33,781 bases of DNA, taken from an uncultured Clostridia bacterium. Its GTDB lineage: Bacteria > Aerophobota > Aerophobia > Aerophobales > B3-G15. The number at the start of each line of letters is the position of its first letter. Position 1 is the first letter of the stretch. The stretch spans positions 1-33,781 of the forward strand of contig CAYZYX010000020.1 of the NCBI GenBank assembly GCA_964482715.1, in the 5' to 3' direction. Positions 347-10,026 of the stretch are shown here, piece after piece. The notes beneath the pieces were generated by a model. It searched no databases, was not told the DNA's origin, and saw only the letters and a list, made by a program, of their open reading frames with translations. Made by a program: the position numbers and the translations under genes.

Positions 347-423
347 GCGCCTGTAGCTCAGAAGGACAGAGCAGCGGCCTCCTAAGCCGCGGGTCGTGGG
401 TTCGAATCCCGCCAGGCGCACCA
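347..423 (+). tRNA. tRNA-Arg (anticodon CCU)
   Basis: Cloverleaf: acceptor GCGCCTG/CAGGCGC, D-arm GCTC/GAGC, anticodon stem GCGGC/GCCGC with loop CT-CCT-AA, T-loop TTCGAAT, encoded 3' CCA. Confidence 0.97.
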
Positions 424-425
424 TT

Positions 426-2126
426 TTATTTTTGTTCAACCATCTCCTGGGCTAATTTGAGTGCCTCTTCTTTTTGCCTGATTTTACCAGCGATTTGTGC
501 CTCGTGTATTTTCTTCAAAATTTTTGATATCTGAGGACCAGCCGGTATTCCCAGCGTATTGATAAGTTCTTCTCCGGATACTAATTTGGGAGGATTTAAA
601 ATTACTGAACGTTTCTTGAAAAAAACTGAAAGTATTTCAACAAGGGCTCTCATCCAGACTGAACCCTCAGGTTGAGCAGCAATTGCTGTAAGACAGATCT
701 CCACCGTTTCTTTCCCTGATAGGGAAAAAAATTCACATATTTTGGTGGAGTCAGGAGACTGGTCCTTCAATTTTTGCAACACAGGAGTAAGATTTGTGAT
801 CTTTTGAATAAATTTTACCTCTTTGTTCCCCAGTTTTAATGCTTTGTGTGCTGTTTCTACCAATTTCTCGTTTTTTTCAAAAGAGAAGATTAAATTGATT
901 AATCTTAAAAGTTGTATTCTGCTTCTGTGTCCCACTTTTTCTTGCAAGTGATCAAGAATTGGCGGTTTTAATGAGTAAAGCGGAGACTCTTCGGAGTTTA
1001 AGATCTTTTCAAGGCGAATCAAATTTTCCGGATAGCAAGGTAAATTCAATATTTCTTCAAACAACTTCCGAGCACAGGGTTGGTTTATGTGTTCACTACT
1101 GGATGAATAACTTAAAATAAGGAAGATTTCTTCCTTAATTCTCTCTCTGGCAACCTGATTTATGAGCTTATATTTATGAAGTATCATATCCAGGGTTCCT
1201 TCGTCGAGTTCAAAATCAAATTGTGTCTGGAGCCGAAAAGCTTTTAACATTCGCAAGGGGTCAACATCAAAAGCCTCAGGACTGACCAGCCTTATCTTAC
1301 CATTTAAGAGATCTTCCAGGCCATCTTTGAGGTCAATAAGACACAAATTGGGGCTTTCTACGTAATCCAGATCAAGGGCAAGAGCATCAATAGTAAAATC
1401 TCTTCTTTTCAAGTCAGATTTAATGTTCGTTTTTTTTAGGGTAAAGTCTAACTGATATCCATTCGGAAGAACAACCCTTACCAGATTTTCGTCTAAATAA
1501 ATGGGAGAGCTCTGATAACTGTGGGCAAATGGTTCTATTAATTTAAAGTCAGCACTATCCAGGATAAAATCAAAATCTCTACTTTCCCTGCCCAGAAGAC
1601 TGTCTCTTATAAATCCTCCCACGAGATATATCTTTTCACTTTGCTTAAATTTAATAAGAGAACTCAGGATAGGGTCATTTAGTCTTTTCTTAAGGTAGGT
1701 CCATTGGAGGGAACCATCTATGGCCCTTTCTCTGCGGATTCTATCTAATATTCCATTGACAAACTTCCCCGAATCAGAGGTCCCGTAACGCTTTGCTATT
1801 TCTACCGCTTCATTTATGCTCACTATTGAAGGTATATCTTCAACGAGGAGAAGTTCGTATATGCTGAATCGCAGGATATTTCGGTCAACAACGGCCATCC
1901 TTTCCAGAGTCCAGTTTTTGGCATAGGTCTTAATGAGCTCATCAATGCAGGGAAGATAATTTTCTGTTCCTTTTACGATCCTTCTGGAAAAATCTTCTAC
2001 CTCTTGTCTGAAGTGATATCTGGATAGAAGTTCCTTTAGAGATTGAGAGGGAGAAATTTCCCTGACATCAGCCTGATAGAGAGTCTGTAGTGTAAATTCT
2101 CTGGCCTTGCGTCTGTTTTTCATCAC
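426..2126 (-). CDS. nusB: Fusion: N-terminal transcription antitermination factor NusB + class II tRNA nucleotidyltransferase (CC-adding-like)
   Basis: aa 1-132 show NusB motifs (RRKARE..LQTLYQ, WTLERMAVVDRNILR, INEAVEIAKRYG, FVNGILD). From aa ~166: LVGGFIRD..DFDF, DLKRRDFTIDALA, GLEDL..KIR, DPLRMLKAFR, ERIKEE, C-terminal GEEL..LGIPAGPQI. Confidence 0.9.
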   Translation of the reverse strand: MMKNRRKAREFTLQTLYQADVREISPSQSLKELLSRYHFRQEVEDFSRRIVKGTENYLPCIDELIKTYAKNWTLERMAVVDRNILRFSIYELLLVEDIPSIVSINEAVEIAKRYGTSDSGKFVNGILDRIRRERAIDGSLQWTYLKKRLNDPILSSLIKFKQSEKIYLVGGFIRDSLLGRESRDFDFILDSADFKLIEPFAHSYQSSPIYLDENLVRVVLPNGYQLDFTLKKTNIKSDLKRRDFTIDALALDLDYVESPNLCLIDLKDGLEDLLNGKIRLVSPEAFDVDPLRMLKAFRLQTQFDFELDEGTLDMILHKYKLINQVARERIKEEIFLILSYSSSSEHINQPCARKLFEEILNLPCYPENLIRLEKILNSEESPLYSLKPPILDHLQEKVGHRSRIQLLRLINLIFSFEKNEKLVETAHKALKLGNKEVKFIQKITNLTPVLQKLKDQSPDSTKICEFFSLSGKETVEICLTAIAAQPEGSVWMRALVEILSVFFKKRSVILNPPKLVSGEELINTLGIPAGPQISKILKKIHEAQIAGKIRQKEEALKLAQEMVEQK

Positions 2127-2319: not shown

Positions 2320-3240
2320 ATGGATCCTTTGCAACTTGCTCGGGAAGCCTCTATCTCAACTTTTTTGGAGATGCAATCACTTTTAAAAGAAGCAATCCAT
2401 AAACTGAGAACAGAAAAAGAAAAGAGTAAAATTGGTATCCATAAGCTAAAAGGAGGTCTTGTTGAACTTAGTACTCGGGGGAGAGCTATCGTTGTGGGAG
2501 ACCTTCATGGAGATCTGGAAAGTCTTATAACTGTTCTCTCAAGAAGCCAGTTTATGAAAAAAACTCGGGAAAATGAAACCTATCTGGTATTTCTGGGAGA
2601 TTATGGAGATAGAGGGGAAGAAACACTCGAGGTTTATTGGGTAGTTTTAAAGTTGAAACTGATTTTTCCAGAAAATGTAGTCCTTCTGCGTGGAAATCAT
2701 GAGGGACCTCCAGACTTAGGGGTTCACCCCTTTGATTTACCCTATTTTTTAAGACAAAAGTATGGACCCAAATGGCAGGAGCTTTTTCCTTTATTTCCTG
2801 AGCTATTCAATACTCTTCCTTACGCTGTTTTTGTTCCCGAGAGATATCTTTTGGTTCATGGAGGACTTCCGGTAAATATTAGTTCCATTGAAGATATAGA
2901 AAAGGCTTTCTCCAACCATCCGACTAAAGACCATTTAACCCAGATTCTCTGGAATGATCCCGGAGAAATTGAAGGGTTCCTTCCATCTCCTCGAGGTGCG
3001 GGAGTGATTTTTGGGAGAGATGTATCGGAAAACATTTTAAAAAAATTAAAGGTAAAAACGCTTATCCGAAGCCATGAACCCTGTAATGGCGTTATGGTGG
3101 CTCACCAGGGAAAAGTGTTAACCCTTTTTTCTCGTAAGGGTGCTCCTTACTATAATGATCAGGCAGCCTACCTTACTATTGATCTCTCTGCTCCAGCTAA
3201 AGATGCCTTTCAACTTGCCCGGGAAGCACATCTGTTTTAG
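2320..3240 (+). CDS. PPP-family Ser/Thr protein phosphatase (calcineurin-like metallophosphoesterase)
   Basis: GDLHG, GDYGDRG, LRGNHE, HGG, LWNDP, SPRGAG..FG, IRSHE, TLFS motifs; RBS AGGGAG upstream. Confidence 0.92.
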   Translation: MDPLQLAREASISTFLEMQSLLKEAIHKLRTEKEKSKIGIHKLKGGLVELSTRGRAIVVGDLHGDLESLITVLSRSQFMKKTRENETYLVFLGDYGDRGEETLEVYWVVLKLKLIFPENVVLLRGNHEGPPDLGVHPFDLPYFLRQKYGPKWQELFPLFPELFNTLPYAVFVPERYLLVHGGLPVNISSIEDIEKAFSNHPTKDHLTQILWNDPGEIEGFLPSPRGAGVIFGRDVSENILKKLKVKTLIRSHEPCNGVMVAHQGKVLTLFSRKGAPYYNDQAAYLTIDLSAPAKDAFQLAREAHLF

Positions 3241-3260
3241 TAGTTCAAAATGGCGTGGAC

Positions 3261-3289
3261 TTGCTCACATCTTTCTTTTATGCTAAACT
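3261..3289 (+). promoter_or_regulatory. Putative extended -10 promoter of the AAA+ ATPase operon
   Basis: TTGCTC (3261-3266), 17 nt, TGn-TAAACT (3284-3289); RBS GAGGAG before ATG 3318. Confidence 0.4.
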
Positions 3290-3317
3290 ATAACAAAAAT
3301 TAACCAGAGGAGAAAGT

Positions 3318-5129
3318 ATGAATTACCCCGAATTGATACAGAGAATAAGAAAACTTCCTTCACCTAAAATATATAAAAATTCTACCGAAGTCTGCCGGGT
3401 AAAAGGGGTTTCTCTTAATTTATGGGATGTGATCACGGCAGCTGTTATCTCAGGATTGAACATCCTTATCGTGGGTGAAAAGGGAGAGGGTAAAACTCAG
3501 TTAGCTCTGGAAATAAACAACACCTATTTTGGAGGAAGGGGTACCTTTATCAGAGCTCACCCTGATTTAAAAACGAGAGATATATATACGGCTCTCAGTC
3601 TGGAGAAACTGTCTTCAGCGCGTGGAGATACCCACGAGGCTTTGAAAATAGTAGAGTCGGTGAGAAATCCCCTCACCATACTTGATGAAATAAACAGAGT
3701 TCCCCAGATAACTCAAAATCAGGCACTTTCAATTTTAGATGGATACATAACTGTTCCCGAGCGAAACGAAAACGTGTTCTTTGGAATTGATGGTTTTCAT
3801 ATCGGGGTAGCCACTGCCAATCTGGGGAGAAGTTATTCGGGAATTTTTCCTTTTGATCCTGCTTATCTTGATCGTTCACATCTTATTATCAATGTGGATA
3901 ACTTTCCGCCCACCACTACTGATCTTATTAAGATTCAGCAGCAGGACATAAACCCTCGTCTGGAAAAACCTGATCAGGAAGACTGCACTGATGAAATAGT
4001 TGCTATATGGAAAAGTTTGAGCGAAATGAGTCTTGCCCTTGATGGTTTAATAGCAGACCTCTACCTGAAAAAGAATCTTGACTTTTGTGTTAAATCTCCA
4101 ACAAAAAGAAAAAGCACTGTCAGGGATGATATTCCCAATATGTGTCAGGGTTGTTCTTCGGAGGGGAGGGAAGGGGGGTTATCCGAAGTTTGTGGATACG
4201 TTGTTCCCACCAGTACTCGTTCATTTAAAGCATACAAAGCTCTTGCTTTTGGACTTTGTGCCGTAGCTGATGCTAAATCCACTAATCCTACACCAGCTCT
4301 TCCCGGATACGCTGAAGTCCTGGAGGCTTTCAGAATTACAGGCCCTTATTCTGGAATACTCGATTCTGCCTGGATAAGACGTGACCATCACGGAAATCCT
4401 TATCTGGCTGTTGATTTTCTTTATCATCGGATTAAAGAAGACTTGGAGGCAAGGATTGATTATATTAAAAAGGGTTTCTCTGATGCTATTGCTGGAAGGC
4501 TTACACGAGATTCTATAGAGGCTCTGGGCGAAGAGTGGTTCTGGCTGGAAGAGATATTAAACGAAATAAACCTCATAGCCAGAAATAGTTCGGGAAGATT
4601 GGTTGAAGAGATTAAAAGCAGGAAGATACTTTATACTCAGGATTTCTGGATTGCAAGCCTCCTGCATCCGGATCAGACGCTTTTTGGTGAGAGTATCACT
4701 CAGTTAACCTACGGACAGGATATGGGAGAAAAGATAAGAGAAAAGCTGGACAGTATGTACGGTATAGCTTTCGCTACAGAAGATGGAATCTACATCTGGT
4801 ATGAAGGTATGAATGAACCTAAAAGAATATTTGAACTTCCCAGAGAGAGATTTAAAAAGAAAGAGATAAAAGGTCTTGCTTTTGTAAGAGGGAAACTTCT
4901 TTTTGCCATAGGAAATGAAATCTATGATATTGATAATCCAGAGGTTCCTCTCCTTAGTACCTCAAGCCCCGTTCAGGCTTTAACTCAAAGTGGAGACGTC
5001 CTGTTGGGAGCCGAAGAGGCTAAAATCTGGGTTTCCCGTGAAGGGAGAAAACGAGAGATTATGATTCCCTGGCAGAAAAAAGTTACAGCTGTTCTCTCGG
5101 CTCCCGTATATAAACTAAAGAGATTTTAG
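3318..5129 (+). CDS. MoxR-like AAA+ ATPase with Cys cluster and C-terminal beta-rich extension
   Basis: Walker A GEKGEGKT, Walker B ILDEINR, sensor ATANLG, DPAYLDRS (Arg finger); VWA gene starts 2 bp after its stop. Confidence 0.85.
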   Translation: MNYPELIQRIRKLPSPKIYKNSTEVCRVKGVSLNLWDVITAAVISGLNILIVGEKGEGKTQLALEINNTYFGGRGTFIRAHPDLKTRDIYTALSLEKLSSARGDTHEALKIVESVRNPLTILDEINRVPQITQNQALSILDGYITVPERNENVFFGIDGFHIGVATANLGRSYSGIFPFDPAYLDRSHLIINVDNFPPTTTDLIKIQQQDINPRLEKPDQEDCTDEIVAIWKSLSEMSLALDGLIADLYLKKNLDFCVKSPTKRKSTVRDDIPNMCQGCSSEGREGGLSEVCGYVVPTSTRSFKAYKALAFGLCAVADAKSTNPTPALPGYAEVLEAFRITGPYSGILDSAWIRRDHHGNPYLAVDFLYHRIKEDLEARIDYIKKGFSDAIAGRLTRDSIEALGEEWFWLEEILNEINLIARNSSGRLVEEIKSRKILYTQDFWIASLLHPDQTLFGESITQLTYGQDMGEKIREKLDSMYGIAFATEDGIYIWYEGMNEPKRIFELPRERFKKKEIKGLAFVRGKLLFAIGNEIYDIDNPEVPLLSTSSPVQALTQSGDVLLGAEEAKIWVSREGRKREIMIPWQKKVTAVLSAPVYKLKRF

Positions 5130-5131
5130 GT

Positions 5132-7009
5132 ATGGATTATAGAACCCTCCAGTATGAACTTACCGGTATAAATAATTTACTTGGTCTCAGTGAGGATTCA
5201 GTCAAAGTTTTACCGGTAAAACCTTCCCGTGGTCACATTGAGGTAAGATTAATTTCTTCTCTGCGTCAGATGCAGATAAATATAGATGAAGACTGGAATA
5301 TAAATCGAGACCCTGACCTGAGTCTCTACCTTAGTAAAAGTTATCACGATCATCCTCTTTTTGAGATGAGTAGAGACCTCCTCTGCAACAACATAGCCCA
5401 TGAGCAGTTCTGTCCAGGTTCTATTGAATATCATCATAAACTCATGGATGTTGTGGCCAAAATCCTGGAAAAGAAAGGAAAAGCCTCTCAAACTTCCTAT
5501 GTGTGCCATAGTTTGGAGGATATAATTGCCAATACCTGGTGTAAGCTCAATTTTGGGCATTTTAAGGGCATGGTAATATTTTTTTATGATCAACTTTCCA
5601 TTCCTTCGGATAATTTATCCGCATTTTCTTTACTGGGAAAAATACTTAAGATTATTCCCGCTCATCGGAAAATAAGTACTCCTTATGAAGTTTTTCTCCG
5701 GGTAAATCTTGCTCTCTGGGGAGAAGAAGATGATTTCTCATTTTTGGGAAGATTTTTTTCCCACCGCAGAGAAGTTGAAGAGAGAGTAAATAGGATTCTT
5801 GATATATTCCGTTTGCAAGACAGCGTTACTCTGGAGGAAAAGGTAGAGGTTCTTTCTGATAGGTCGCGATGGGAAAAAATTGTTCAGAGATTTTCTCTTT
5901 TAATGGCGGACTTATTGGATGAAGAATGTCCAGAGAAACTGAGTTGTGAAAATTGGTTTGAAAAGGAAATAATGAACGAAGAAACAAGAAAAAGATTTAT
6001 CAAAAAAATGTACGAACAGGGTAAAGAAAAGCCTCATTATGTTAATAGTCTGGAGATCACCAAGACTCTTTATGAAATCCTCTCACCCGAGATTCCCATC
6101 CAGGTTGATACCGAGAGAAGAGGAAGAGCTATGCCCGTTGTGCCTTTTAACTATGACCCCTTTGATCCTGCAGTTCACTCTCGAGAAGATATAGATCTTG
6201 GAGGTGTATTGATAGACCCGGAAAGTCCTTTTTTCAAAATGGTCAATTTTCGTGTTCCGAGATACCATTATGATCTTTTTATTCCCTACAGGGCTGAGCG
6301 AAAGGGGGCTTTTCCGGACATATGCTTTCTTATTGATACCTCAGCTTCTATGGCTGATGATGTTGAAGGAAAGATTTCCATTCAGACTATTGGAATGGCA
6401 AAAAGACTTATAAAATCAAGATTTTACTTTGGAGAAGGGAGACATTCCTGGAGTGATAAGAGTAAGTACCACCATGTTTTACTGGGATTCAATGGTGCAA
6501 TTAAATGGCTTCAGTCTCATGGAATAGCTCCCTATATCCGTTACAATGTAATCACTTTCTCTCGGGATACTCTCACCAGTGGTTGGAGGGAATATTCCGA
6601 ACTTGATGAATGCAAAAAAATAGCTTATTTACCTCAATTTGATACGACTCTGATTGATTACAGGGTTATTGAACAACAGCTTTTAAGGAGAGAGCCTTTT
6701 GTGCTTATTATACTCTCAGATGGAGAGATCTTTAACTGGGATGATTCTACTAAAGCTTATTCTCCTCACCGTTTGAGGGATTTTATAAGAGGGATAAGAC
6801 CGGTGAAAAATCTTTTTAAACAAATAGTGGAAAACAACATGGTTTCCCATATTCAAATTAGCGAAGGTGATTTTAAACCTCGAATTTCCCAGTTGACCTG
6901 CCAGGATCTCTCTGATTGGGGAGCTGAGATATACAGGATAAACGATATAAATCGTCTGGAGTCTCTTATGATTAGAATAACCCGCAAAGTTATGATTCCC
7001 TATCTGTAA
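5132..7009 (+). CDS. VWA (MIDAS) domain protein, probable partner of the MoxR ATPase
   Basis: C-terminal DICFLIDTSASM (DxSxS), NVITFS, DTT, IILSDGEI motifs; about 390-aa N-terminal region. Confidence 0.82.
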   Translation: MDYRTLQYELTGINNLLGLSEDSVKVLPVKPSRGHIEVRLISSLRQMQINIDEDWNINRDPDLSLYLSKSYHDHPLFEMSRDLLCNNIAHEQFCPGSIEYHHKLMDVVAKILEKKGKASQTSYVCHSLEDIIANTWCKLNFGHFKGMVIFFYDQLSIPSDNLSAFSLLGKILKIIPAHRKISTPYEVFLRVNLALWGEEDDFSFLGRFFSHRREVEERVNRILDIFRLQDSVTLEEKVEVLSDRSRWEKIVQRFSLLMADLLDEECPEKLSCENWFEKEIMNEETRKRFIKKMYEQGKEKPHYVNSLEITKTLYEILSPEIPIQVDTERRGRAMPVVPFNYDPFDPAVHSREDIDLGGVLIDPESPFFKMVNFRVPRYHYDLFIPYRAERKGAFPDICFLIDTSASMADDVEGKISIQTIGMAKRLIKSRFYFGEGRHSWSDKSKYHHVLLGFNGAIKWLQSHGIAPYIRYNVITFSRDTLTSGWREYSELDECKKIAYLPQFDTTLIDYRVIEQQLLRREPFVLIILSDGEIFNWDDSTKAYSPHRLRDFIRGIRPVKNLFKQIVENNMVSHIQISEGDFKPRISQLTCQDLSDWGAEIYRINDINRLESLMIRITRKVMIPYL

Positions 7010-7031
7010 AATTTCGCCTGTGAGAATTTAC

Positions 7032-7487
7032 ATGAAAGTTAAAAAAGTAAAAGATTTTATGAACACTCAGATAGTAAGTATAAAAAGAGCTACACCGATT
7101 GGAGAAATTGCCCGCATTTTTCTCACCCATGGTTTTGACTTTTTACCTGTGGTCGATGAAGAAAATCATCTGCTGGGTGTAATTACTAAAAAGGATATTC
7201 TTGCTCCCTTTATTCCCGAGTACTTTGAACTTTTAGACAGCGTGGATTTTATTTCCGATTTCGGTTCACTGGAATCCTCTGTTACAGAGACTTTAGAACA
7301 CTTACTTGTGGCTGAAGATATAATGATAAAGGATCCCATAACTATTGATGAGGAAGCCTCTCTTTTTAAAGCCATAGCCTTAATATCTCATCATAAGGTC
7401 AGGCATCTTCCGGTGGTGAGGCAGGGAAAAATTGTGGGAATAGTTAGTCGGACTGATATTTTAAGAGCGATATTTGAAGACAAATAA
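7032..7487 (+). CDS. CBS-pair domain protein
   Basis: Two CBS repeats (VKDFM..LPVVDEENHLLGVITKKDIL; AEDIM..LPVVRQGKIVGIVSRTDIL). Start is ATG 7032 or GTG 7020. Confidence 0.92.
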   Translation: MKVKKVKDFMNTQIVSIKRATPIGEIARIFLTHGFDFLPVVDEENHLLGVITKKDILAPFIPEYFELLDSVDFISDFGSLESSVTETLEHLLVAEDIMIKDPITIDEEASLFKAIALISHHKVRHLPVVRQGKIVGIVSRTDILRAIFEDK

Positions 7488-8929: not shown

Positions 8930-10026
8930 GGAAAATACATGAAGATCTTTGGCCGGGAAAACTTCATCATTGAACTTCAGGATCATCTTCTACCAGAAGA
9001 ATACGAGTTAAACTTGAGACTCTTTGATCTTGCCTCAAGGCTTCATCTTCTTGTTGTTGCCACCAACGATGTTTACTATGCAAAGCCTACCCAGCATGAG
9101 ATTCATCAGGTCCTTGTTAGAGCAGCAAAACTCATCCATCACCGTGATATTGTAGAAAAGAAAAGTCCTGAGTATTACTTAAAATCATACCATAAGATGG
9201 CAAGTGTATTTACAAGATATCCCTTTGCCCTTTTTAACACAGATCTTATTGCAAGGGAGTGCAACTTAGAGCTTCCCCTGGGTAAAATCAGGTCTCCTGG
9301 GTTTTTAAGTAAAGATAATGCCCACCACCAGCTTGCAAAGATCTGCTTTCAAAACCTCCCCAAAAAATACAAGTCTCCCTCAAGAGAGGTTACAAGAAGG
9401 CTTATAAGAGAGCTTAAGATAATAAAGGAAAAGGGATTTTCCTCTTACTTTCTCCTGGTTCAGGACATTGTTAAATTTGCCAGGAAAAAGGGTATAAAAT
9501 GTCAGGTAAGAGGCTCTGCATCAGGTTCACTTGTTTCTTATCTTACCAGTCAGCTTATCTTAAGGTTTACTTTCCAGAAGAGTTTTACCTTGCTATCTTA
9601 AACAACCAGCCAGGACTTTATCCTCCAGGTGTTATCTTAAATGAGACAAAAAGATGTGGTATACCCATACTTGGTTTTAGCTTCACAGGACATCCAATTG
9701 AACTTTTCAGGAAAGCTTTTAAGGGGAAAAATAGGATAAAAAGTGGTAAGCTTACATCTCTAAGAGAAAACGAGAGAGTGGAAGTTGCCGGTGTAAAGAT
9801 AATCCTTCACACACCACCAACAAAAAGCGGGATAAGGGTTATCTTTTTAACACTGGAGGATGAGGAGGGTTTAATTGATGTTGTGGTTTTTCCTTCAGTG
9901 CAGGAGAAGTTTGCCAGGACCATCTATGAGGCTGATTTTCTCTTTTTGGAAGGCTACATTAAAAAACACGGCTCTTTAAGCTCACTGGTGGTAGAAAAGG
10001 TATATGACCTGCAAACCATGGTATAA
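8930..10026 (+). pseudogene. dnaE2: Internally deleted DNA polymerase III alpha (DnaE2-like) remnant
   Basis: PHP part (IELQ, VATNDVYY), then RLIRELKII..GFSSYFLLVQDIV..RGSASGSLVSY; frame change to SYQSAYLK..FY.AILNNQPGLY; jump to LGFS.TGHP and OB fold (PPTKSG..FLTLEDEEG). 5' end and catalytic core absent. Confidence 0.88.

Follow-up and report, generated by a model that had tools for sequence, protein, structure and literature searches.

A NusB domain fused in frame to a likely CC-adding tRNA nucleotidyltransferase is a conserved trait of the phylum Aerophobota

In a stretch of 33,781 nt from an uncultured bacterium of the Aerophobota (contig CAYZYX010000020.1 of assembly GCA_964482715.1; hereafter the window), one open reading frame (ORF) on the minus strand encodes a NusB domain followed by a class II tRNA nucleotidyltransferase. 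Read from GTG at position 2126, the ORF has 566 amino acids (aa). Its probable start is the ATG at 2123, one codon further on, which gives the 565 aa of the database entry P0001; GAAAGG lies 5-8 nt upstream of these two starts. No Met occurs in the translation between aa 78 and about 292, and the transferase part therefore lacks a separate start codon. An earlier reading made from the letters of the window (the sequence-only reading) had described a single uninterrupted 566-aa ORF without an evident internal start, holding a complete NusB domain at aa 1-132 and a full class II nucleotidyltransferase. This description was borne out by the ORF itself and by the domain, motif and fold matches given below. 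The features of the gene are as follows.

426..2126, minus strand: whole fusion ORF, 566 aa from the GTG at 2126, with the stop codon at 426-428.
1731..2111, minus strand: NusB domain, aa 6-132 (Pfam PF01029, TIGR01951), the only NusB-family match of the genome.
1674..1730, minus strand: junction, aa 133-151, with the motif ER-x5-L-x-W-x-[YHF]-L, predicted to be helical.
429..1673, minus strand: class II tRNA nucleotidyltransferase with head, neck, body and tail, aa 152-566 (Pfam, NCBIfam, PDB and fold matches).
1569..1619, minus strand: motif A, GGxxR...DxD, with the catalytic carboxylates (G170, G171, D184 and D186 in the 566-aa numbering; invariance in 65 sequences).
1401..1448, minus strand: third catalytic Asp to motif B (RRDFT), with the B/A motif and the flexible loop deleted and 14 residues between (alignments).
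1251..1262, minus strand: motif D, (V)DPLR, the nucleotide template; D and R invariant, leading E not conserved.
1113..1145, minus strand: motif E, ERIKEEIFLIL, or ERxxxExxxhh, of the CC/CCA type and not of the A-adding or poly(A) polymerase (PAP) type.
459..893, minus strand: body and tail, PF13735 tRNA_NucTran2_2, aa 412-556; the tail aligns to that of 3wfo.

The genome that carries the gene (G000) is a metagenome-assembled draft of 54 contigs and 1.57 Mb, 94.7% complete. A draft of this kind speaks for an artefact, in which two adjacent genes were merged by an assembly or sequencing error or the contig is chimeric. Against this, the junction (1630-1735 of the window) was bridged with 0 gaps by contigs of three other studies (X2 record 8, 1123-2400; X3 record 11, 391-1881; X6 record 32, 857-2400). 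The best-matching sample, X1, which is possibly the source sample, was left out of this comparison. The sole indels in the bridging contigs were at 2160 and 2165, both upstream of the start codon, and the linker thus held neither the stop nor the frameshift for which the sequence-only reading had advised looking. The fused frame was also found in other genomes. Among 31 species genomes of the phylum (Aerophobetes or Aerophobota by record titles; one order, 7 families, 15 genera), 27 had a NusB match, exactly one each, and 26 of these matches lay in frames of 564-610 aa. The 27th, of 339 aa, abuts a contig end. The four genomes with no NusB match are 69-84% complete, and one of them, G007, has an edge-cut transferase of the fusion type. 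The same reading had raised two further possibilities, a second nusB in the genome and relatives with two separate genes. No second NusB-family match was found in G000 or in any of the 31 phylum genomes, and the relatives carry the fusion.

In a collection of 5.8 billion proteins, the top 65 clusters (P0001-P0065; hereafter the family) all carried PF01029 and PF01743. They were 563-598 aa long, with 43-100% identity to the query at a coverage of at least 98%, and, where a name was given, it was mostly 'Candidatus Aerophobetes bacterium'. The next matches below them were standalone transferases, which covered about 70% of the query with identities of at most 31%. An intact fusion ORF of 579 aa is also present in a single-cell genome, Candidatus Aerophobus profundus SCGC AAA252-L23. 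The bridging contigs, the 26 fused frames, the single-cell genome and the 65 clusters, which come from several sources, refute the artefact, to which we give practically no chance. The fusion was confirmed as a real and conserved trait of the phylum, of which it is the only NusB.

Other searches addressed the limits of this distribution. When 1.84 billion representatives were searched with a profile, the best 150 matches comprised two full-length fusions, three fragments and 145 standalone transferases, which aligned only from profile position about 138 onward; these 150 reach down to about 205 bits, so that a very divergent fusion scoring lower would fall outside. A search with the NusB region, covering proteins of 311-991 aa that share words with the query, returned the 65 family clusters and 20 other NusB fusions, none of them with PolyA_pol. 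Among the matches listed from GTDB species genomes were 80 loci, of which five were full-length fusions, all of this lineage by identity; the remaining 75 were NusB only, mostly from Omnitrophota, Planctomycetota and Verrucomicrobiota. No transferase ORF was found within flanks of up to 3 kb at these 75 standalone-nusB loci among the matches listed. Therefore the fusion is not a simple weld of a widespread gene pair, and an origin by joining of adjacent genes was rejected. As far as the sensitivity of these searches allows, the fusion has a single origin and does not occur outside this phylum.

The other NusB fusions were mostly single-member clusters (P0110, P0278-P0285) with LigA, PHP, RibH, FolD, NUDIX or Lyase_1 as partners. 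Examples are an NAD-dependent DNA ligase of 803 aa that includes a NusB domain and a DMRL synthase (RibH) joined to NusB. These rare proteins could be real fusions or read-through artefacts.

The N-terminal part is a good match to NusB. Pfam PF01029 covered aa 6-132 with 121.8 bits (cut-off 23.1), and the NCBIfam NusB equivalog TIGR01951 scored 138 bits (cut-off 88.35). The NCBIfam models for RsmB aligned with aa 6-137 only, at no more than 72 bits against cut-offs of 269-540, and no methyltransferase domain was found in the fusion by the Pfam and NCBIfam scans. In the AlphaFold2 model this part is all-helical, with helices over residues 4-133. Compared by Foldseek with Thermotoga maritima NusB (1tzt), it gave a TM score of 0.86 and an rmsd of 1.6 over 132 columns at 47% identity, and the sequence match of 1tzt to the domain was 114-147 bits. 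No other region of the protein is as conserved: the majority fraction is 0.79 here and 0.52-0.69 elsewhere.

Residues with known roles in NusB were also compared. A structure of the Aquifex aeolicus NusB-NusE-BoxA complex has been published, and the text describing it places F122 and E81 at the pocket for uracil-8 (PMC3177189). By pairwise alignment they correspond to F122 and D81 of the fusion, both invariant in the 65 sequences. Tyr Y17 (Y16 in the numbering of P0001) is invariant as well and is presumably the counterpart of E. coli Y18, the Tyr that contacts S10. Positions 118 and 128 are Asp, as we take the matching positions of E. coli NusB to be. The S10 of this organism has kept H15 and a basic residue at position 16. 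When a complex of the full-length fusion with this S10 was predicted, the score was 0.75, compared with 0.00 for the best control; solved complexes reach this mark in 58 of 80 cases and mismatched pairs in 2 of 110. Three runs shared at least 98% of the contacts, the pLDDT of the partner was 81, and all confident contacts were on NusB residues 12-21, 31-35, 77-79 and 112-116. The predicted docking may mirror known NusB-NusE complexes, because such complexes have already been solved. The prediction is a measure of likeness to NusB-NusE and of an unobstructed face in the full-length protein, not of binding. The fusion has probably kept the function of NusB.

The rRNA (rrn) operons carry the matching RNA element, since boxA, UGCUCUUUG, stands directly after the promoter in their leaders. 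The organism's own rrn operon starts at the edge of contig C29 of G000, where TTGACA-17 nt-TATAAT is followed by six bases and then by TGCTCTTTGAAAATT; the 5′ end of 16S is about 45 nt past TGCTCTTTGAAAATT. The leader element that was scored as boxA is TGCTCTTTG. Its first eight bases are identical to what we take to be the core of E. coli rrn boxA, UGCUCUUU. A stricter pattern, GCTCTTT[AG]A[CA]AA, had one occurrence in the 1.57-Mb genome, at this leader. The arrangement of promoter, boxA and 16S was seen in all nine phylum relatives with an assembled 16S, with the motif TG[CAT]TCTTTGA[AG]AA at 44-52 nt before 16S in each. Support for boxA positions 1, 2, 5, 6, 8 and 9 is found in the text of PMC3177189. 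A second boxA-like element, TTG[CT]TCTTTGACAACTGCAT, was present 3′ of the spacer tRNAs in five of the nine relatives.

All nine relatives have tRNA-Ile and tRNA-Ala inside their rrn operons, and CCA is encoded in seven of the nine tRNA-Ile and eight of the nine tRNA-Ala genes. In two rrn spacers, L098 (G027) and L101 (G017), tRNA-Ile lacks a complete encoded CCA, as does the tRNA-Ala of L098; these incomplete ends read ...ACC followed by T or C. In the own genome, no boxA-like motif was found within 400 nt upstream of the tRNA genes (0/30). An Rfam search of G000 for 16S gave no match, though the first ~330 nt of 16S are present at the C29 edge (minus strand), and this blank is therefore a false negative.

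NusB-fold domains also bind RNA in RsmB, and the N-terminal domain might have been repurposed as an RNA-binding or targeting module of that kind, with no role in antitermination. The RsmB models do match aa 6-136, and the existence of other NusB fusions in databases fits such a use. This repurposing is quite unlikely, given that the domain scores above the NusB equivalog cut-off and far under those for RsmB, and that it is the genome's only NusB and the most conserved part of the protein (0.79 vs 0.52-0.69). The conservation of the S10-contact and boxA-pocket residues, and a boxA with the presumed E. coli 8-nt core after the rrn promoter, likewise argue for a retained NusB.

The junction between the halves (positions 133-150) is 18 or 19 residues long in 65/65 family members, and the Leu and Trp of its motif, ER-x5-L-x-W-x-[YHF]-L, are invariant in the 65 sequences. 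Standalone transferases align from profile position about 143, and therefore the true connector has some 10-18 residues, not 30. AlphaFold2, run with the family alignment on the whole chain, gave one confident model (mean pLDDT 92, pTM 0.84), in which the connector forms two short helices with pLDDT 92-95. A single confident model suggests that the two domains have a fixed mutual orientation. The sequence-only reading had proposed a linker of ~30 aa here. A connector does exist; it is shorter than proposed (~10-18 residues), of fixed length, conserved and predicted to be ordered.

The C-terminal part has the head-neck-body-tail architecture of class II enzymes. In the Pfam search, the PolyA_pol head (PF01743) was found in two stretches, PF01743 and PF13735 were above their cut-offs, and PF12627 (PolyA_pol_RNAbd), with 20.6 bits, fell just under its 22-bit cut-off. 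In motif A, G169, G170, R173, D183 and D185 (in the numbering of P0001) are invariant in the 65 fusion sequences, as are the third Asp, RDF of motif B, D and R of motif D, and E-R-x3-E of motif E (E327, R328 and E332). With its catalytic motifs invariant, the enzyme looks active. An HD domain (PF01966) is present in almost all of the nearest standalone short-loop transferases (P0066-P0120) and in 0/65 fusions, so this phosphohydrolase module was lost in the fused lineage. One short-loop-family protein of 879 aa (P0232) has its transferase at residues 9-489 and ~390 further residues on the C-terminal side.

Class II enzymes differ in which nucleotides they add. In the descriptions available in four texts (PMC2910056, PMC7014341, PMC3925840 and bioRxiv 10.64898/2026.05.29.728689), bacterial CC-adding enzymes lack the flexible loop and have ERxxxExxxhh. 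A-adding enzymes and poly(A) polymerases have sRxxxExxxhh, and the latter have an extra upstream motif, according to the text of PMC2910056. Deletions in the flexible loop are described to block A addition (passages in PMC7014341 and PMC2910056). The loop has 14-15 residues in 65/65 fusions, 13-15 in 181/181 of the nearest standalone relatives, and 29 in a second transferase of the same genome (described below). These counts come from an alignment of 267 sequences, of which 247 were parsed and 20, with no recognisable motif pair, were dropped. Compared with the T. maritima CCA-adding enzyme, a 15-residue gap opens at the flexible loop. A bacterial poly(A) polymerase was rejected for the fusion: the PAP motif is missing here and in all parsed members, and motif E starts with Glu. 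Motifs D and E and the PAP motif were parsed by a strict regular expression, to which 21 of the 65 fusions yielded.

The best sequence match in the PDB was 3wfo, with 148.9 bits (profile) from head to tail, followed by the T. maritima CCA-adding enzyme (111.7 bits) and the 4wby/1vfg set (108.5). The stretch from the third Asp to motif B is 5 residues shorter in the fusion than in 3wfo. We take the entries 3WFO-3WFS to be AaS, the enzyme of A. aeolicus that adds CC. Their PDB titles read only 'Poly A polymerase' or 'tRNA processing enzyme'. Their identity as AaS is consistent with the description in a review (PMC3925840). From the deleted loop and ERxxxExxxhh, the transferase is likely of the CC-adding subtype and not a full CCA-adding enzyme. 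The sequence-only reading had named it a nucleotidyltransferase; the complete class II enzyme stands, and this subtype refines it.

A CC-adding enzyme would leave A76 to another enzyme. G000 has exactly one other class II transferase, a protein of 862 aa with DHH-DHHA1-CBS ahead of its transferase. It aligned with positions 1-876 of the 880 of the NCBIfam A-adding model NF041569 at 694.6 bits, under the cut-off of 1440. Its loop is full-length (29 residues), and it has K, not E, before RxxxE. A transferase of this long type was present in 28 of the 31 phylum genomes, in frames of 859-921 aa in 23 of these 28 and in shorter ones in the other five, and no third type was found in the 31 genomes. 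In five relatives the long-transferase gene and the rrn operon share a strand, with the gene ~5-9 kb upstream (G013:C1, G017:C58, G014:C17, G008:C4 and G004:C41). On C29 of G000, the long transferase (5865-6248) is likewise on the same contig and strand as rrn, roughly 5-6 kb from the start of 16S.

Thirty tRNA genes were found in G000: 21 encode CCA, eight do not, and one, at a contig end, could not be judged. The only genes found for tRNA-Cys and tRNA-His are among the eight. With eight of the 29 judgeable genes lacking CCA, addition of both CC and A de novo is required.

We consider it fairly probable that the fusion is a bifunctional protein, the sole NusB of the organism and at the same time the CC-adding half of a split CCA system. 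Both activities, and the division between CC and A addition, are what we infer from the sequences. The N-terminal 132 residues would be the organism's only NusB, which most likely pairs with S10 (NusE) on boxA after the rrn promoter and so would nucleate the rRNA antitermination complex. The C-terminal ~415 residues would be a class II CC-adding enzyme that adds C74 and C75 to those tRNAs, about a quarter of the total, for which CCA is not encoded in the gene, and that would repair the others. A76 would be added by the 862-aa DHH-CBS-transferase encoded elsewhere in the genome. A short, conserved and probably rigid connector joins the halves, so that every NusB molecule carries the transferase.

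Several observations weigh against this reading. The leading Glu of motif D (EDxxR) is missing here and in many family members, and the HD domain of the nearest standalone relatives is missing from all 65 fusions. By Foldseek, the fold is closer to that of the T. maritima CCA-adding enzyme (TM 0.76-0.77) than to the 3wf* set (0.65-0.70), in comparisons over about 410-450 columns; the preference is slight, and structure therefore cannot tell the subtypes apart. According to the text of PMC3925840, CC-only activity cannot always be explained by a short loop by itself. The paralog is below the NF041569 cut-off (694.6 vs 1440), and its motif starts with K, fitting neither the A-adding rule, which asks for a 'small' residue, nor a start with E. 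For the NusB half, the S10 docking score may reflect the solved NusB-NusE complexes and not the behaviour of this copy. We also take the full CCA-adding enzyme of T. maritima to have the same long architecture as the paralog, and therefore the paralog could itself be a full CCA-adding enzyme.

The fusion transferase would then be a full CCA-adding or repair enzyme, or redundant, beside a complete CCA enzyme of the T. maritima type, with no division into CC and A. To this alternative belong the first rank that Foldseek gives to the T. maritima CCA-adding enzyme, the score of the paralog under the A-adding cut-off and its K in place of the small residue of sRxxxE. So does the statement in the text of PMC3925840 that transplanting a loop does not convert CC-adding enzymes in every case. 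We regard it as rather unlikely, because deletions in the loop region block A addition (as stated in PMC7014341 and PMC2910056) and because two transferases have been retained across the phylum, the long one in 28 of 31 genomes and the fusion in 26 full-length copies plus edge-cut fragments.

A stronger proposal is that the two activities are physically coupled; the sequence-only reading had already suggested that the fusion could tether 3′-end nucleotide addition to the antitermination complex. Through NusB, S10 and boxA, the transferase might travel with RNA polymerase while rrn is transcribed and be an additional subunit of the antitermination or chaperone complex, which we hold to be possible and not probable. 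In that place its substrates might be the 3′ ends of nascent tRNA or rRNA, or its role might be structural; these modes share the same low standing. In an equally doubtful variant, immature tRNA bound to the transferase might tune the availability of NusB, which would link rRNA synthesis to tRNA maturation. The proposal is consistent with the fixed length of the junction (18-19 residues in 65/65) and its invariant Leu and Trp, with one confident model over both domains (pTM 0.84), and with the maintenance of the fusion across 7 families, down to 43% identity, with no unfused NusB. It also fits the S10 face predicted to be free in the full-length protein, the conservation of boxA, S10 face and boxA-pocket residues alike, and the tRNA-Ile and tRNA-Ala genes within the rrn operons of 9/9 relatives. 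On the other side, most spacer tRNAs encode CCA (Ile 7/9, Ala 8/9), no boxA-like motif was found in the 400 nt upstream of the other tRNA genes (0/30), and long-lived fusions can last for co-expression alone. The genome has two SuhB-like inositol monophosphatases, so there is no obvious vacancy in the complex, and a SuhB vacancy was rejected on this ground. Tentatively, then, the connector might mount the CC-adding enzyme rigidly on NusB, so that every rrn antitermination complex would bear a tRNA 3′-end polymerase near the RNA exit path. If so, the protein would be a new enzyme-bearing subunit of the rRNA transcription and chaperone machine. It might then work on spacer tRNAs as they are made or on other 3′ ends, or bound immature tRNA might allow feedback on rRNA synthesis.

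In the window the fusion gene stands alone. Its downstream neighbour is convergent:

347..423, plus strand: tRNA-Arg(CCT), CCA encoded; context, outside the fusion.

Its upstream neighbour, a metallophosphoesterase gene (2320-3240, plus strand), is divergent, and a promoter scan of 2127-2319 found no convincing promoter on the minus strand. The metallophosphoesterase (306 aa) is the first in a run of four genes at 2320-7487 (plus strand), divergent from the fusion gene, with an AAA_5 ATPase of 603 aa, a 625-aa protein without a Pfam match and a tandem-CBS protein of 155 aa. Further on, at 8939-10026 (plus strand), pieces of the DNA polymerase III alpha subunit are spread over two overlapping ORFs that differ in frame: a 220-aa ORF matches positions 2-76 of the 260 of DNA_pol3_alpha, and a 175-aa ORF an OB-fold. 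This pair looks like a frameshifted or remnant dnaE fragment.

Both fused domains belong to known families. With the NusB proteins of T. maritima (1TZT), A. aeolicus (3R2C/3R2D) and E. coli (3D3B) the fusion shares a full-length domain, the boxA-pocket residues and an rrn boxA. Those proteins are standalone, with about 130-160 aa, whereas here the C-terminal helix of NusB runs via the connector into a 415-aa enzyme; no free NusB was found in the genomes of this phylum. With the presumed A. aeolicus CC-adding enzyme (3WFO-3WFS) the transferase shares the loop deletion, ERxxxExxxhh and the tail motif, and the genome has a second transferase that is a candidate for A addition. The fusion transferase differs in a loop 5 residues shorter and a head 19 residues shorter overall than in 3wfo, in the absence of the HD-like body motif, in a motif D Glu that is not conserved and in NusB at the N-terminus. 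RsmB/Sun, the 16S rRNA m5C967 methyltransferase, is built on the same logic, with an RNA-binding domain of NusB fold on the N-terminal side of an enzyme that modifies RNA; in the fusion, however, the domain is an orthologue-grade NusB and the enzyme is a nucleotidyltransferase, not a methyltransferase. The A-adding DHH-DHHA1-CBS enzyme (NF041569), of which the long paralog of this genome is a candidate member, is likewise a class II enzyme with a large N-terminal extension, but that extension is DHH/CBS, the loop is full-length (29 residues) and motif E is without the starting Glu.

Full-text literature searches found no published description of a NusB-nucleotidyltransferase fusion, in agreement with the sequence-only reading, to which the fusion was not known as characterised. 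The main text of a 2026 survey of class II CCA enzymes (bioRxiv 10.64898/2026.05.29.728689) contains neither NusB nor fusion nor Aerophob. The architecture is present in databases and, as far as these searches reach, undescribed. At NCBI and JGI the proteins bear one of two labels, 'NusB' or 'CCA-adding enzyme', and with either label one half of the protein goes unseen.

NusB and the enzymes that build CCA are textbook proteins of RNA biology, and to our knowledge no functional link between the two has been reported. Fusions of the 'Rosetta-stone' kind are often a sign that the joined proteins serve one process. Here the two proteins stay joined across a whole phylum, with a conserved junction and no free NusB in its genomes. 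The fusion hints at a link between rRNA transcription and tRNA maturation, and it raises the question of whether synthesis of the tRNA 3′ end is coupled to the rRNA antitermination complex.

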